Shown here: in pieces, positions 4,501 to 25,625 of the stretch
Position numbering within the stretch: the stretch's first letter is position 1
Layout: the number at the start of each line of letters is the position of its first letter
NCBI GenBank assembly: GCA_019307165.1
Contig: JAFDKD010000043.1
Location: 1-28,610 of the forward strand
From: Deltaproteobacteria bacterium
Lineage (GTDB): Bacteria > Desulfobacterota > DSM-4660 > Desulfatiglandales > Desulfatiglandaceae
Reading direction: 5' to 3'
DNA length: 28,610 nucleotides
Made by a program: the position numbers and the translations under genes
The notes under the pieces: generated by a model
What the model was told of the DNA's origin: nothing
Database searches by the model: none
Seen by the model: only the letters and a program-made list of their open reading frames with translations

Positions 4501-5880
4501 TTAGAAATGAGTCAATGCCACCTTCCCGATGGGGAACACATTAAACCCGATCTCATGAAGCCGCTTATGATCGAGAATATTTCGACCGTCAAATATATAT
4601 GCCGGTTTGCTCATGGAGCGAAATATGGCGCTATAATCGAGTTCCCGGTACACATCCCACTCCGTCATGACGGCAACGGCGTCACACCCCGATGCGGCGG
4701 CATAGGGATCTTCCTCATAGGAGACCTTTCCCGGAATCCCTTTCAGGTCCGCCCTCGCATTTTCCAGGGCCTTGGGATCGCTTATGACCAGTTCCGCCCG
4801 CTCCTCCAGCAGTCTTCCGGCAATGCCGATGGCGGGACTCTCCCGCGTATCTCCCGTATTGGCCTTAAAGGCAAAACCGAACATGCAGATCCGCTTTCCC
4901 GCCAGGGTATTGAACATGGCGGCAAGCATCTCCAGGATGAAGCGTCTTTTTTGATAATCGTTGATCCGCAGAACACCGTCCCAGTAGTCGGCCACTTCCT
5001 CAAGTCCGTAATGGCGGCAGAGATACACCAGGTTTAAAATATCCTTCTTAAAACAGGAGCCGCCGAAACCCACGCTGGCGTTGAGGAATTTGTGGCCCAC
5101 GCGGCTGTCCATGCCCACGGCCCTGGAAACCTCCGTAACGTCCGCGTCGGTCTTCTCGCACAAAGCAGAAATCGAGTTGATGGATGAGATGCGCTGGGCC
5201 AGAAACGCATTGGACACGAGCTTGGACAACTCGCTGCTCCAAATATTGGTGGTCAGTATGCGGTCCTTCGGGACCCAGTTGGCATATATTTCAACCAACT
5301 GATCCCGGGCTTTCAGGCCGGCGGGCGTTTCCCGCGAGCCCACCAGCACCCGGTCCGGGTCCTCGAGGTCTTTTATGGCGGAACCTTCGGCCAGGAATTC
5401 GGGATTGGACAGAACATCGAAATTAATGCCGTTGTTCTCAGCGGTGAGGATCTTTTCCATGGCCAGGGCGGTCCTCACCGGCAGCGTGCTCTTTTCCACG
5501 ATAATCTTGGGGGAGTCCGAGCATTCCCGTATCTCCCGGGCGGTTCGCTCCCAGTACTGGAGATCCGCCGCCATACCAGCGCCTGCGCCGAACGTTTTGG
5601 TAGGGGTGTTTACGCTCACGAAAATAATATCCGCCCGGCGTATGCCGCCCTTGATGTCCGCGCTGAAAAAAAGGTTTCTTCCCCTTGCCGCTTCGACGAT
5701 CTCATCCAGCCCCGGTTCGTAAATTGGGAGATTCCCCGAGTTCCACCGGCTGATCCGGTTCTCGTTGATATCGACCACCGTAACCTTGTACTGGGGGCAC
5801 TTAAAGGCGATCATCGCCATGGTGGGACCGCCTACGTACCCCGCACCGATACACAGTATATCCTTTTCAAACTCAGACAC
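4501..5880 (-). CDS. ugd: UDP-glucose 6-dehydrogenase (start taken as GTG 5880)
   Basis: ILCIGAGYVGGPT, FVSVNTPTK, IVEKSTLPV, LSNPEFLAEG, GFGGSCFKKD, FAFKANTGDTRESP, FDGRNIL motifs. Confidence 0.95.
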   Translation of the reverse strand: MSEFEKDILCIGAGYVGGPTMAMIAFKCPQYKVTVVDINENRISRWNSGNLPIYEPGLDEIVEAARGRNLFFSADIKGGIRRADIIFVSVNTPTKTFGAGAGMAADLQYWERTAREIRECSDSPKIIVEKSTLPVRTALAMEKILTAENNGINFDVLSNPEFLAEGSAIKDLEDPDRVLVGSRETPAGLKARDQLVEIYANWVPKDRILTTNIWSSELSKLVSNAFLAQRISSINSISALCEKTDADVTEVSRAVGMDSRVGHKFLNASVGFGGSCFKKDILNLVYLCRHYGLEEVADYWDGVLRINDYQKRRFILEMLAAMFNTLAGKRICMFGFAFKANTGDTRESPAIGIAGRLLEERAELVISDPKALENARADLKGIPGKVSYEEDPYAAASGCDAVAVMTEWDVYRELDYSAIFRSMSKPAYIFDGRNILDHKRLHEIGFNVFPIGKVALTHF

Positions 5881-5972
5881 GAAAAATCCATCCTCGGACC
5901 GTATGACCGTGATCAGCCATATTTTCAGGACTTGCCCGCAAACCACGCGGTACCGACATTTAACATTTTGAT

Positions 5973-7042: not shown

Positions 7043-7684
7043 ATGCTGACACAAGAGAACAACCTGACGGTAATTTCTATTCCTTCGGCTTTCAAAATGG
7101 TGGGCATCATCGCAGGGACATGGGCGCTACTGGTCGTGCTGAGTTCAACCCTGGCCTATCTCCCTGGACATCCCGACTTCTCGCTGTTCACCACTTACCT
7201 GAGCGATATCGGTGACACTGCCGGGTGCGGCACGCTTATGGCCGCACCCATGCGGTACCTTGTCGTCGTGCTGCTGGTCTTGCGCCTTTTGCAGTTGGGC
7301 GCCGGCCGTGCCTTTGCCGTAGCGGCCCTGATAATCGGATTGATTTCAACCGCCGGCACTGTATTCATGACCGCCGTTCCTTTCAGCGTATCGCCGGCAA
7401 TCCATAAATCGGGCATCCCGCTGTATTTTCTCGGCGTCGTCGTTCTCCAGACGTTAATCGGCATCCGTGAATGGTCGCTGAGAAACGTTCCCAAAATCCT
7501 GCCGGTGTTGTGCTTCCTGATGGTATCTGTGTATTTCATATTTGCCACATTGGTCATTCTCCACGAGCAAGGTACGGTTGGCCGGAGCACGCCCGTGATC
7601 TGGGAATGGCTGGCTTTCTTCTCGTCCGTGGCTTGGGTATTCGCGCAGAGCATTTTGTTGGGAGGGAAGGAAGCCGCCCGGTAA
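7043..7684 (+). CDS. Polytopic membrane protein (DUF998/Frag1-like)
   Basis: About 5-6 hydrophobic segments; YLSDIG, H-containing SPAIHKSG and terminal WEW motifs. Confidence 0.65.
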   Translation: MLTQENNLTVISIPSAFKMVGIIAGTWALLVVLSSTLAYLPGHPDFSLFTTYLSDIGDTAGCGTLMAAPMRYLVVVLLVLRLLQLGAGRAFAVAALIIGLISTAGTVFMTAVPFSVSPAIHKSGIPLYFLGVVVLQTLIGIREWSLRNVPKILPVLCFLMVSVYFIFATLVILHEQGTVGRSTPVIWEWLAFFSSVAWVFAQSILLGGKEAAR

Positions 7685-7806: not shown

Positions 7807-7828
7807 AATCATGGAAAGGAGTGCCGCT

Positions 7829-8581
7829 ATGAACGACATCGCTCAAAGGATTCAAGGGATCATGGAAGAAAACCATGTGCCCGTTTTCGGCATGGCCCCG
7901 TCGCATGCCCTCGAAGACGCGCCTTCCGGGAACAGGCCGACGGAGACGCTCACTGGCACCAAGAGTGTCTTTTGCATGGGCATTCCCATGCCCAGGGGCT
8001 TGTTCTTGTGCGGATCGCGGTCCCTGGCGACCTATTGGCGGGCGGCCGCCGTAACCTACCGGCAGATGGACTGGACCCTTCTTCAGGTGGCCCGCGCCGT
8101 TGAGGAAGATGGAGGGTCGGCCGTTCCCCTTTATGGGTGATTCCCCTATGACGTCCGGGGTCCGGGCGACTTTTGTGGATATGTGTCCCTTGTGAGCATG
8201 GCCGAGACCGTTGGAATCGGCAAGCGAGGCAAAAACAGCCTGATATTACACTCCAAGTATGGCCCGAGACTTATGCTGGGAGGGCTGCTCACCACCTCGG
8301 AACTGCCCACCGGCTGTTGGCCCGAAAAGGACGATACAGGGTGCCCGGAGGATTGCGATGTTTGTATGAAGGTCTGCCCCGTGGGCGCAATCGGAGAAAA
8401 TGGCGATGTAGATCGGTTGGCCTGCATTCGGCATTCCATGAAAAGCCCCCTCTTTTCTTTTCTGATGAAAACCAAGGCATTTGATCCACAGGACGCGGCT
8501 ATGATAAATCATGTCACAGCGGTTGATGACCATTCCTGGTATACCTGCATCAAGTGTGTGTCCGAGTGCCCCCTCCTGTAG
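7829..8581 (+). CDS. Candidate selenoprotein (Sec104): QueG/reductive-dehalogenase-like 2x[4Fe-4S] protein, 250 aa with TGA read-through
   Basis: RBS AAGGAG, ATG 7829. In-frame TGA 8138-8140 in ...AVPLYG-U-FPYDVRGPGDFCGYVSLVSMAETVGIGKRGKNSLILHSKYGPRLMLGGLLTT..., then CPEDCDVCMKVCP, AC and CIKCVSECP (8 Cys). SECIS-like hairpin follows; selB is in the window. Confidence 0.85.
8152..8168 (+). promoter_or_regulatory. Bacterial SECIS-like hairpin
   Basis: CGUCCGG-GGU-CCGGGCG: 7-bp stem (one G-U) starting 11 nt after UGA, apical loop GGU 18 nt after UGA; similar spacing and GGUC apex to the E. coli fdhF SECIS. Confidence 0.75.
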
Positions 8582-12427: not shown

Positions 12428-12499
12428 GACGCATACTTCGAATTGGAAAACGCGCCCACCCCCCCGAGGCCTGCCACGGGCGATCCGGAGGAAGACACC

Positions 12500-13177
12500 A
12501 TGCCATCATCCATTCCCATAAGCGGCTGCCGGACCACAAAGATCTACTGCCGGCCGGGGTGCCCGCCCGGGAGGCGGACCAAACCTGAAAACCGGGTTTA
12601 TTTCAGCTCGGAGGCGGAGGCAAAGGCAATGGGCTACCGGGCCTGCAAGGTCTGTCGGCCGGATGTCCCCCGCTCCGAGACCTTTCTCCTGTCCGAGTAT
12701 CAAAGCCCTGTCGGTCCCTACCTCCTCGCCGGCTCTCGGTGGGGCGTCGTGGGCATCAAGAGCGGCAGCCGGTCTCAACGCTATATCGAACGTTGGAAAA
12801 AAGAGGCCATTTCATTGAAATTTGACCCGGATGCCAACGGAGAATTGAAGCAACAACTGGATGCCTACTTTACCGGGGAACTGCACCGGTTCACCCTCCC
12901 CCTGGACCTGCGGGGCACGCCGTTTCAACGCATGGTATGGGACGTTCTCAACACAATTCCGTGGGGGAAAGCCATGAGCTACGGCCAGGTGGCAAACGAC
13001 TTGGGACGCCCGAAAGCGGCCAGGGCCGTGGGGCGCGCCGTGGGGACAAACCCCGTGGCCATCGTGGTCCCGTGCCATCGCGTGCTGGGATCGGACCACT
13101 CGTTGACCGGATACGGCGGCGGCCTGGACATAAAGACGGCCCTGTTGCGGCTGGAAAAGATTGCTTACAAAAAATAA
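12500..13177 (+). CDS. ogt: Methylated-DNA-protein-cysteine methyltransferase with N-terminal Ada Zn-binding domain
   Basis: GCRTTKIYCRPGC...GYRACKVCRP (Ada Zn site); GTPFQRMVW, SYGQVA, ARAVG, NPVAIVVPCHRV, LTGYGGGL; RBS GGAGG before ATG 12500. Confidence 0.93.
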   Translation: MPSSIPISGCRTTKIYCRPGCPPGRRTKPENRVYFSSEAEAKAMGYRACKVCRPDVPRSETFLLSEYQSPVGPYLLAGSRWGVVGIKSGSRSQRYIERWKKEAISLKFDPDANGELKQQLDAYFTGELHRFTLPLDLRGTPFQRMVWDVLNTIPWGKAMSYGQVANDLGRPKAARAVGRAVGTNPVAIVVPCHRVLGSDHSLTGYGGGLDIKTALLRLEKIAYKK

Positions 13178-22849: not shown

Positions 22850-23644
22850 TAATGGATATGTTCCGTTTCGCAATGAACCGGCCACCACGCGCGCTACGCC
22901 GCCGGCCGCCGGCTTCGTGAGAAGCTCGACCAGTGTCATCGCAAGGCTCGGGTCCTTCAACAAATCCAGCTTGTTCAAAAAAATAGCCCGCCTCGCCGAA
23001 CCGGGAGCGCCCTTGAAAAGGCCCCCGCTTTCCTGAAAAACGCTTACCAGAACCCGTGGGGTCAATCGCTCTCCGGGTTGCAGCCCGGTCAGGGCCGCGA
23101 ATTCATCCCCCCTGAAGACCGTATCCCGGTCGAAATGCCTTTCCAGCGCCTCCAGACCCATCATGGCCACCACCAGTGTGGCGCTCTCGGGAATCACCGG
23201 TTCATGGTCGGCCGGGACTTTCACCGGCCTGCCGGCAGCCCCGTCCGCTTCCACGACCAAGCAGTCAGGGGAAGCGTCATTGAAAAGTCTGTCCGCGGCG
23301 GAGGGCGAAATCCCTATAATTTTCCCAAAAGGCCCGCGCTTTTCCCCGACAAACGCCCATCCTTCCGCTGCCAGGACTGTTGCCAGATGGGACTGCCGGC
23401 CGGGACCCGTTTCGGACCTCATGACGACCGGAAACCGCAGTGCCTCTTCGTGCCGGATTTTGGTGGTGGTGCTTACCAGGACTCGCCGACCAAGGGACTT
23501 GAATTCTTCTGCCAGGACCGTCATAAGCGTGGTTTTTCCGCCGCCGCCCACAATGGCGATGTGCTCCCTCGATTTCAGGGCCAACGCGTCTATTAAACCC
23601 TGTTGATTTTTCTCCAAGGCAGACGTCCGATCTTCGCGGCTCAA
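22793..23644 (-). CDS. yqeC: Selenium cofactor biosynthesis protein YqeC
   Basis: IAIVGGGGKTTLM, VLVSTTTKI, VVEADGAAGRPVKVPADHEPVIP, GLFKG, FLNKLD. Confidence 0.9.
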   Translation of the reverse strand: MSREDRTSALEKNQQGLIDALALKSREHIAIVGGGGKTTLMTVLAEEFKSLGRRVLVSTTTKIRHEEALRFPVVMRSETGPGRQSHLATVLAAEGWAFVGEKRGPFGKIIGISPSAADRLFNDASPDCLVVEADGAAGRPVKVPADHEPVIPESATLVVAMMGLEALERHFDRDTVFRGDEFAALTGLQPGERLTPRVLVSVFQESGGLFKGAPGSARRAIFLNKLDLLKDPSLAMTLVELLTKPAAGGVARVVAGSLRNGTYPLVSAASGPGSAGLIDRESS

Positions 23645-23720: not shown

Positions 23721-25625
23721 TTATTTTTTTCTCAAGACCCGGTTGTCTCCCACCCGAACGGTGATCTGCGACTTGTCAAAGTACTCGATCAAAGGTATGG
23801 CGTACTTACGTGAGACGCCGGTCATGTCCTTGAACTGAGGCGTGGTTATTTCCCCGTTCGCCTTCAAAAAATCGATCATTCGGTCTTTGAGCGCTTCGAT
23901 GGCCTTCCCGTAGAAGTAGAGGTCTTCTTTGACCTTGATGACGATGCCTTCTTCAAGCATGACGGCCAAAACCTCCTTCGCAGTCTTTCCCGGGAATTCC
24001 CCTGAGATCTCCTTCAAATAGGGCGGCTGAAGCCCCTTTTCCCGATATATCTTCTCAAGCCGATCGCGCGCCTTTTCCTGGTCCTGTGCCAGGGTTACCT
24101 GGTGCTCCTTAAGCCGAACCAGTTCCTTTTCCTGGACCACCACATCTTCTTTTGTCAGCTGATTCATGACGTAATTGAACAGCTTGACGTTTTTTGCGCC
24201 TTCGGTCCTGGATCGCAATTCCTCTTTGGGAAGCCCGATTTTGAGGGGAAATTCTCCGTGGTAACGGCTGATGGTCTCGACGACCTGGTCCCTGGCCGCG
24301 GCAAAAAAATCCGCATGGATCAGGGCCCCCCGCTCTTTGTCATAGGCAATGACCCGCTTGCGGGCCTTCAACCCTTTAAGAACGTCATCAAGCCTTTTCC
24401 TGCGGGTGTTCGTCAGAAAGGAAAGCTCCCCTTCCTCCACGCCGCGGTATCGACCCATCAGTACAAACAACTCGCATGTTTCAGCCGGGTCCCCGTCAGC
24501 CAGTAGTTTCATCTGCGAAGCCGCTTTTTCCGAAAACCGCTTCATTTTCCCCGGCAGCGCATTGAGGATATCGCCACCCCCTATGGTCCTCACCGGCGAG
24601 TAGCTCCTCAGCACATAACGGTCGCCCCGCAGTACGGCCACGGGCGCTTCGAGCCGCATCTGCGCGAAACAACCTTCGCCGGGTTTCAGTTCATCCCGAT
24701 CCGACAGAACAACCGTGGCGATAACTTCCGAAGTTCCGGTGTGAAACCGGGCCTTGGCCCTGTTTTTGAGCTTCCGTGGCGAACTCTTGAGCAGATCCAG
24801 CCGGACATCCACCATGAAGCTCGGCCGAAGGGCATCCTTTGTGGCCAGCACATCGCCCCTGCGGATGGTCGTCCGCTCGATGCCCTGGAGGTTGATGGCG
24901 GTCCGCAGCCCGGCCCGAACATCCCGGACCTCCTTGTTGTGAACCTGGATGCCCCTGATCCGGGACTCGATTTCCTGGGGATAAATCGTGATCTCGCCGC
25001 CGGTGGAAGCCATACCGGACACGGTGGTCCCGGTGATGACGGTGCCGAACCCCTTCATGCTGAAGACCCGGTCGATGGGCAGTCTGAAAATGTGACCCAG
25101 GTCCCGGTCGGGAATGTTCGCCACCAGTTGGTCCAGGGTCTGGATCAACTCCGGAATCCCCTGTCCGTTGAGCGAGGAGACTTCCACGATGGGCGACTCC
25201 CCCAAAAAGGTGTTGGCGAGATAGTCGCTCACATCTTCCCGAACCAGTTCCAGCCATTCCTGTTCGACCATGTCGATCTTGGTCAGGACCACAAGCCCGT
25301 GCCGCACCTTCAGCAGTTCGCAGATCTCCAGGTGCTCTCTGGTCTGGGGCATGACGCCTTCGTCCGCGGCGATCACCAGCGCCACAAGGTCGATGCCCGT
25401 GGCGCCGGCCACCATGTTCTTGACAAATTTCTCGTGGCCCGGCACGTCCACGATCCCCAACAGTTTGCCGCCGGGCAGTTCCAGGTGGGCGAATCCCAGC
25501 TCGATGGTGATGCCGCGCAGTTTTTCCTCTTTCAACCGGTCCGTGTCGATGCCGGTAAGGGCCCTGATGAGGGAGGTCTTGCCATGGTCGATGTGTCCCG
25601 CCGTACCCAGTACAATCTGTTTCAT
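23721..25625 (-). CDS. selB: Selenocysteine-specific translation elongation factor
   Basis: [41 protein letters not shown]-terminal winged helices ending [15 protein letters not shown]...RVGDNR. Confidence 0.97.

Follow-up and report, generated by a model that had tools for sequence, protein, structure and literature searches.

A hairpin at positions 8152-8168 of the window, by which we mean the whole 28,610-nucleotide stretch of DNA analysed here, is very probably the functional upper stem-loop of a SECIS element lying within coding sequence, to which we infer that SelB binds and through which selenocysteine (Sec) would be inserted at the UGA immediately upstream. At the column of this UGA (8138-8140, + strand), which we read as Sec (U110), 80 orthologues have Cys and 33 have TGA, and the frame downstream of it is conserved. 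Read as Sec, the TGA fuses two open reading frames (7811-8140 and 8183-8581) into a single 256-aa frame at 7811-8581 (+), a predicted selenoprotein gene with Sec at residue 110 and two [4Fe-4S] motifs, whose product resembles QueG and RdhA. The assignment draws on the frame being open if UGA encodes Sec, on profile and structure matches, and on an orthologue column that holds either Cys or TGA. What looked like a stop codon, and led gene callers to split the gene, becomes with the hairpin good evidence that a full-length selenoprotein is encoded.

The split made by the gene callers (into products of 109 aa and 132 aa) is also what would be seen if the TGA were a true stop, the locus being a pseudogene or two separate genes and the hairpin a relic or irrelevant. 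The genome is, moreover, a MAG of 987 contigs, 92% complete with 7.7% contamination, such that the Sec machinery and the gene could come from different organisms. We regard a true stop as very unlikely, however, given that selB and the gene share a contig, that the 14 codons from the TGA to the next start are open and conserved, and that the 33 TGA-bearing orthologues, which come from many samples, all have it in precisely this column and keep the frame before and after it, 80 others having Cys there. Identity between the window protein and Sec-type orthologues, which reaches 68%, extends across the junction and likewise argues against a stop. We accordingly proceed with the Sec reading of the UGA.

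Counting the U of the UGA as nucleotide (nt) 1, an 11-nt spacer (8141-8151), read directly from the sequence and equal to the spacing of the 17-nt fdhF upper stem-loop, separates the UGA from the hairpin. The 5′ arm, CGUCCGG (nt 15-21, 8152-8158), as defined by folding, pairs with the 3′ arm, CCGGGCG (nt 25-31, 8162-8168), as defined by folding and by the pairing in register R described below, to give seven base pairs (15-31 to 21-25), including one U·G pair. Between them lies the apical loop GGU (nt 22-24, 8159-8161), the presumed contact of SelB, which occupies the same nucleotides in E. coli fdhF and in FdhA SECIS elements of this genome; the distance from UGA to loop is 18 nt (8141-8158). 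All of these elements are on the + strand. The sequence at 8138-8170 reads as it had been described in the sequence-only reading, with the hairpin beginning 11 nt after the UGA and encoding the DVRGPGD segment. More exactly, it overlaps codons D114-D120, running from the last base of the D114 codon to the first base of the D120 codon.

The 17-mer has a minimum free energy (MFE) of -10.0 kcal/mol (RNAfold), and its pair probabilities are 0.96-0.99 in a 60-nt context. Equilibrium folds of 200-450 nt lower the pair probability to 0.06-0.18, a drop that does not discriminate: accepted SECIS hairpins elsewhere in this genome, folded in the same way, give values anywhere from 0.0 to 0.99. A possible lower helix, pairing nt 3-8 with nt 38-43 around the hairpin (8140-8180, +), was indicated by RNAalifold on a nine-sequence subset, and five of its six pairs form in the window. 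This helix (8140-8145 with 8175-8180) includes the A of the UGA and recalls the lower stem of fdhF; it is left out of the argument, since it arises from F-P and W-G/C-G codons that are conserved in the protein and would pair in Cys types too. Rfam gave no match at the gathering threshold across the window, and none at E up to 10 over 8080-8260.

The window sequence on its own is weak, suggestive evidence for a SECIS, and codon choice in this single gene is not significant. An equally stable hairpin starts 8-20 nt downstream of 1.4% of window positions. Under a null conditioned on the peptide, in which synonymous codons were re-drawn from the window's own codon usage with the peptide held fixed, a bSECIS-conforming hairpin of ≤ -10 kcal/mol arose in 16% of recodings and one of ≤ -7.5 kcal/mol in 40%. 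Such frequencies would be expected if the hairpin were a by-product of G+C-rich Arg-Gly-Pro-Gly-Asp codons, in which case Sec insertion, if any, would depend on another element, for example a larger, two-tier structure or the register that its relatives use further downstream. Two further observations lean the same way: a related R-G-P clade uses a register at nt 18-38, and the 71-nt region has no extra stability over shuffles (z = -0.09). The shuffle z-score of the whole region was dropped as a test, since in G+C-rich coding sequence it is uninformative for an element as short as 17 nt. The peptide is prone to hairpins in its own right, and the weight of the evidence for a SECIS therefore comes from the comparison of orthologues rather than from the window alone; the earlier proposal that the hairpin independently supports Sec decoding stands by way of that comparison, but is weak from this one sequence, considering the 16% of recodings that do equally well.

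Other UGA triplets in the window, in any frame, are also followed at 8-20 nt by a hairpin of ≤ -10 kcal/mol, at 7213, 7765, 18001, 22343, 22707, 22796 and 25921 on the + strand and at 22938, 22236, 22087 and 18803 on the - strand; in a screen of the window, none of these sites joins two long open frames. A second UGA with a hairpin of ≤ -10 kcal/mol and an open frame, at 5300 (+), was rejected as probably spurious, being antisense to a well-supported UDP-glucose/GDP-mannose dehydrogenase gene (4501-5946, -).

Orthologues were collected from 209 genomes belonging to the same class, which yielded two Cys-type close relatives and one TGA type, and by scans of genome and metagenome contigs, which returned 119 further loci. 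Among 113 orthologues, the aligned column holds TGA in 33 and TGT or TGC in 80, and each was scored for its best single hairpin starting at nt 12-24 with a loop centre at nt 19-32. The median best hairpin was -10.0 kcal/mol in Sec types and -1.6 kcal/mol in Cys types (Mann-Whitney p = 9e-14, not corrected for relatedness). Hairpins of SECIS geometry were present at ≤ -5 kcal/mol in 33/33 Sec types and at ≤ -6 kcal/mol in 32/33, in agreement with the expectation that the hairpin be conserved in TGA-bearing orthologues; the exact hairpin, however, is not conserved and takes three registers. At the latter threshold only 8 of the 80 Cys types had such a hairpin, and the converse concern raised with the original observation, that the hairpin might be equally present in Cys-type orthologues, is not borne out by this set.

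Six of these eight Cys exceptions (L062, L081, L107, L115, L129 and L134) are nested within Sec clades and keep the hairpin of the neighbouring Sec forms. They look like relic SECIS elements, and these recent Sec-to-Cys converts would still carry a fossil hairpin. Remnant SECIS-like structures have been described in Cys homologues derived from selenoproteins (PMC1794560, Fig. 4); the six nested orthologues resemble those remnants in a different protein family, and the likeness concerns the orthologues, not the window. On the protein tree, the Sec/Cys state changes at least six times on well-supported branches and 14 times by parsimony. In the six independent Sec/Cys contrasts, the hairpin favours the Sec side in 4.5 and the Cys side in 0.1, with no difference in 1.4 (averages; median p = 0.06), and the sign test on independent pairs cannot reach significance because there are only six well-supported contrasts.

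The same comparison bears on whether the hairpin could act outside Sec decoding, for instance by pausing translation, affecting mRNA stability or serving in attenuation. Local hairpins within genes are able to do such things, and we found nothing specific that favours one here; on the other side, the hairpin follows the TGA state through the family, most Cys forms having lost it, and its spacing and loop content match SECIS rules. We therefore hold a role apart from Sec decoding to be extremely improbable and retain the SECIS assignment.

Among Sec types, the hairpin occurs in three registers, and neither its sequence nor its register is conserved. Register R, at nt 15-31 with loop GGU, GGC or CGGGU, is used by the window, the L-G-K group and the P-G-W group; register C, at nt 16-33 with a 6-nt loop, is used by the A-G-W group; and register D, at nt 18-38 with loop CGGGU or GGG, belongs to the R-G-P clade. 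Pairing within each group is 94-100% in its own register, compared with 53-78% in the other registers. Within register R (n=9), 94% of the cells for pairs 15-31 to 21-25 are paired, a share that drops to 51-67% on shifting the 3′ partners by 1-3 columns, and no shuffle reached the observed covariation score. Pair 20-26 illustrates the compensation, being G-C in the window (Arg CGG/Pro CCG), U-A where the codons are Leu CUU and Lys AAG, and C-G where they are Pro CCC and Trp UGG. RNAalifold recovered the hairpin on the nine register-R sequences but found no single consensus structure over all 29 distinct Sec sequences, a lack that follows from the registers being different. The check by folding and covariation that had been suggested gave a stable local fold and compensatory pairs within register R, but no consensus across the whole Sec set.

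Although the protein tree places the window in the R-G-P clade, its hairpin is in register R; the closest Sec relatives of the window use register D, 5 nt further downstream. Register R is strong (-10.0 kcal/mol) and register D weak in the window because Arg is encoded there by CGG in place of AGA or AGG. On the sequences compared, the exact hairpin structure is lineage-specific. These observations also weigh on the by-product explanation. In the window, register D reaches only -1.9 to -3.2 kcal/mol with a pair probability of 0.0, and consequently no other candidate element is at hand. Register R recurs in two other Sec lineages with compensatory pairs, and the position of the GGU is identical to that in the genome's own FdhA SECIS elements. 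Furthermore, the peptide is itself the selected trait, in that Sec types carry hairpin-capable pairs and the Cys-type K-G-K is incapable of forming one. We consequently judge it unlikely that the hairpin is an incidental product of its codons, and a SECIS remains the reading that we adopt.

The constraint on codons and peptide was evident across the family. Synonymous diversity at codons +4 to +12 was 0.37 in Sec types, compared with 0.58 elsewhere in the gene, whereas the corresponding values in Cys types were 0.50 and 0.54; the comparison of synonymous conservation between the two types, proposed beforehand as a check, accordingly revealed suppression over the hairpin codons in Sec types only. 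Individual codons followed the same pattern, with synonymous diversity of 0.07 in Sec against 0.67 in Cys types at Val+5 (nearly always GUC in Sec types), 0.0 against 0.37 at codon +8, and 0.21 against 0.46 at Phe+11. Changes at residues +6 and +8 go together and preserve the stem, as R..P, L..K, P..W and A..W in Sec types, versus K..K in Cys types, which bears out the suggestion that RNA structure constrains the DVRGPGD segment. K-G-K, the prevailing peptide of Cys types, gave a hairpin of SECIS geometry at ≤ -6 kcal/mol in 0/500 recodings, whereas the RGP, PGW, AGW and LGK peptides were hairpin-capable in 25-74% of recodings. Since K-G-K cannot encode the hairpin and the Sec-type peptides can, the residues flanking the Gly appear to be chosen in Sec forms to allow the stem.

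The orthologues thus offer a view of a coding-region SECIS shaping a protein, with Sec forms needing hairpin-capable pairs and Cys forms relaxing to K-G-K. We lean slightly towards a more specific account, in which the SECIS was rebuilt or re-registered several times (loop centres at about nt 23, 24.5 and 28) by swapping the pair that flanks the invariant Gly. In that case RNA pairing, and not protein function, would set two positions beside the putative catalytic Asp, and the 5-nt jump in the window would stem mainly from one synonymous change of the Arg codon. If this is true, the family would be a natural mutational scan of SelB tolerance, and of how Cys-to-Sec conversions become possible.

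We compared the hairpin with the bacterial SECIS consensus of bSECISearch (Zhang and Gladyshev 2005, per PMC13188914), which describes a loop of 3-9 nt, a stem of 4-16 bp, at least one G among the two nucleotides that open the loop (as a rule G, then G or U), a spacing of 16-37 nt and an MFE of ≤ -7.5 kcal/mol (PMC13188914). The window hairpin conforms on every point, with a 3-nt loop and a 7-bp stem, GGU as its loop, 18 nt of spacing, and -10.0 against the -7.5 kcal/mol threshold; we found no geometric difference from the model. The comparative part of the model is likewise satisfied, with the in-frame UGA aligned with Cys and UGA orthologues existing (80 Cys, 33 TGA), and with the hairpin in UGA orthologues and lost in Cys ones (32/33 vs 8/80), albeit as three registers and not as one structure. 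The mechanism is a standard coding-region bacterial SECIS, already known, and register shifts, paired residue changes and fossil hairpins are all expected from known constraints on such elements.

The likeness to E. coli fdhF is partial; the fdhF sequence used for the comparison is present, annotated as fdhF, in 5,419 of 5,426 E. coli genomes. The window hairpin shares with the fdhF mini-SECIS a 17-nt upper stem-loop at nt 15-31, an 11-nt spacer, GGU at nt 22-24 and a location within the coding sequence, and its G23 and U24 are exposed in the apical loop, a feature of the fdhF type. The bulged U of the fdhF upper stem (U17/U18), on the other hand, is absent from the window hairpin, which forms a continuous 7-bp helix. 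In E. coli, the bulged U is needed for SelB binding. The loop has 3 nt, compared with the larger AGGUCU of fdhF, and the 17-mer is more stable (-10.0 vs -4.2 kcal/mol). The description of the element as fdhF-like is consequently apt for the spacing and the position of the GGU, but not for the bulge or the loop size. The host also differs, being a MAG with its own SelB.

The gene for this SelB, the elongation factor expected to bind the hairpin, lies within the window at 23721-25625 (-) and matches TIGR00475 above the cut-off (368 bits, model positions 1-580 of 581). The genome also encodes a tRNA-Sec with anticodon UCA, SelA (618 bits) and selD, the frame of which itself contains a TGA; SelA, SelB, SelD and tRNA-Sec are thus present as a complete set. 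More than ten other UGA-containing selenoprotein genes with similar small GG-loops were found in this genome, with one in-frame TGA each in at least five FdhA-like genes and six MvhD/FlpD genes. The selenoprotein genes (SelD, FdhA-like and MvhD/FlpD) are located on contigs C585, C270, C620, C507, C126, C320, C766, C639 and C535 of this assembly (G000).

The SECIS elements of the SelD gene, four FdhA genes and six MvhD genes are mostly compact, with loops of 3-5 nt (GGA, GGG or GGUCU) located 18-23 nt after the UGA, and the GGU occupies nt 22-24 in three FdhA genes. Relative to the SelD, FdhA and MvhD/FlpD elements of the same genome, the window hairpin has the same loop style and distance, whereas the stem sequences are unrelated. 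Seven core hairpins from these genes were re-folded and gave -4.6 to -9.5 kcal/mol, and the window hairpin (-10.0 kcal/mol) is at least as stable as all seven. The three registers, together with this house style of SECIS within one genome, could improve SECIS-aware annotation of Desulfobacterota MAGs.

As a model of decoding, the ribosome would pause with the UGA at 8138-8140 in its A site and the hairpin at the mRNA entrance. SelB, in complex with GTP and Sec-tRNA(Sec), would bind the GG(U) apical loop through its C-terminal winged-helix domain, and selenocysteine would be delivered in competition with release factor 2. The ribosome would then melt the hairpin and translate D-V-R-G-P-G-D, a loop that in our alignment would correspond to the catalytic-Asp loop of QueG.

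The host protein falls below the whole-protein thresholds of both families that it resembles, scoring 45.8 bits against QueG TIGR00276 (cut-off 200) and 24.4 bits against RdhA TIGR02486 (cut-off 160); it also matches Fer4_16. A profile built from four orthologues matches QueG and PceA chains in the PDB. The AlphaFold model of the protein (pLDDT 82.4, pTM 0.82) has QueG and PceA as its best Foldseek matches (E 1e-8 to 1e-6; TM about 0.6, query-normalised). In this model, the DVRGPGD segment is a lower-confidence loop between a strand (104-107) and a helix (127-134). The protein is like QueG (epoxyqueuosine reductase) and RdhA/PceA in fold, in a G-x-G-K-N motif and in two 4Fe-4S motifs. It differs in length, with 256 aa against about 370-450 in QueG and RdhA/PceA, only the fold being common. 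The invariant Asp that ends DVRGPGD would align with the Asp of the QueG V-D-T catalytic loop, and the protein would then be unlike QueG and RdhA/PceA in having Sec or Cys 10 residues before the Asp that putatively matches this catalytic-loop residue.

The family is absent from the table of 119 prokaryotic selenoprotein families or subfamilies in a 2026 review (PMC13188914). The protein matches no NCBIfam selenoprotein model, and a text search of the literature for selenoprotein together with QueG returned nothing relevant. For this family, which has a B12-reductase fold with two 4Fe-4S clusters and which the 2026 inventory lacks, the hairpin would add an argument at the RNA level that its members are selenoproteins.

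Two loci related to the window gene deserve separate mention. The named relative with the highest local identity (81%), in contig CACVKW010001507.1 of an Olavius-associated Delta 1 symbiont MAG (L085, 338-634), is internally deleted; residues 3-66 are joined almost directly to residues 218-254, and the Sec/SECIS region is missing, which makes this locus uninformative. A TGA-type locus (L082, 1501-2419) diverges completely a few codons past the TGA (FPYN, followed by unrelated sequence), and its match spans 919 nt as compared with about 750. An insertion or a disruption of the gene is the probable cause, and the locus was excluded from the statistics.

The window gene is flanked on the same strand by a gene for a membrane protein upstream and by genes for a MarR regulator, an unknown protein, a methyltransferase and a methyladenine glycosylase downstream. 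An Ada/Ogt-type methylated-DNA-protein-cysteine methyltransferase is encoded at 12443-13177 (+) in a frame without TGA, presumably as the Cys form; its family is counted as a selenoprotein family in the literature on Olavius symbionts.
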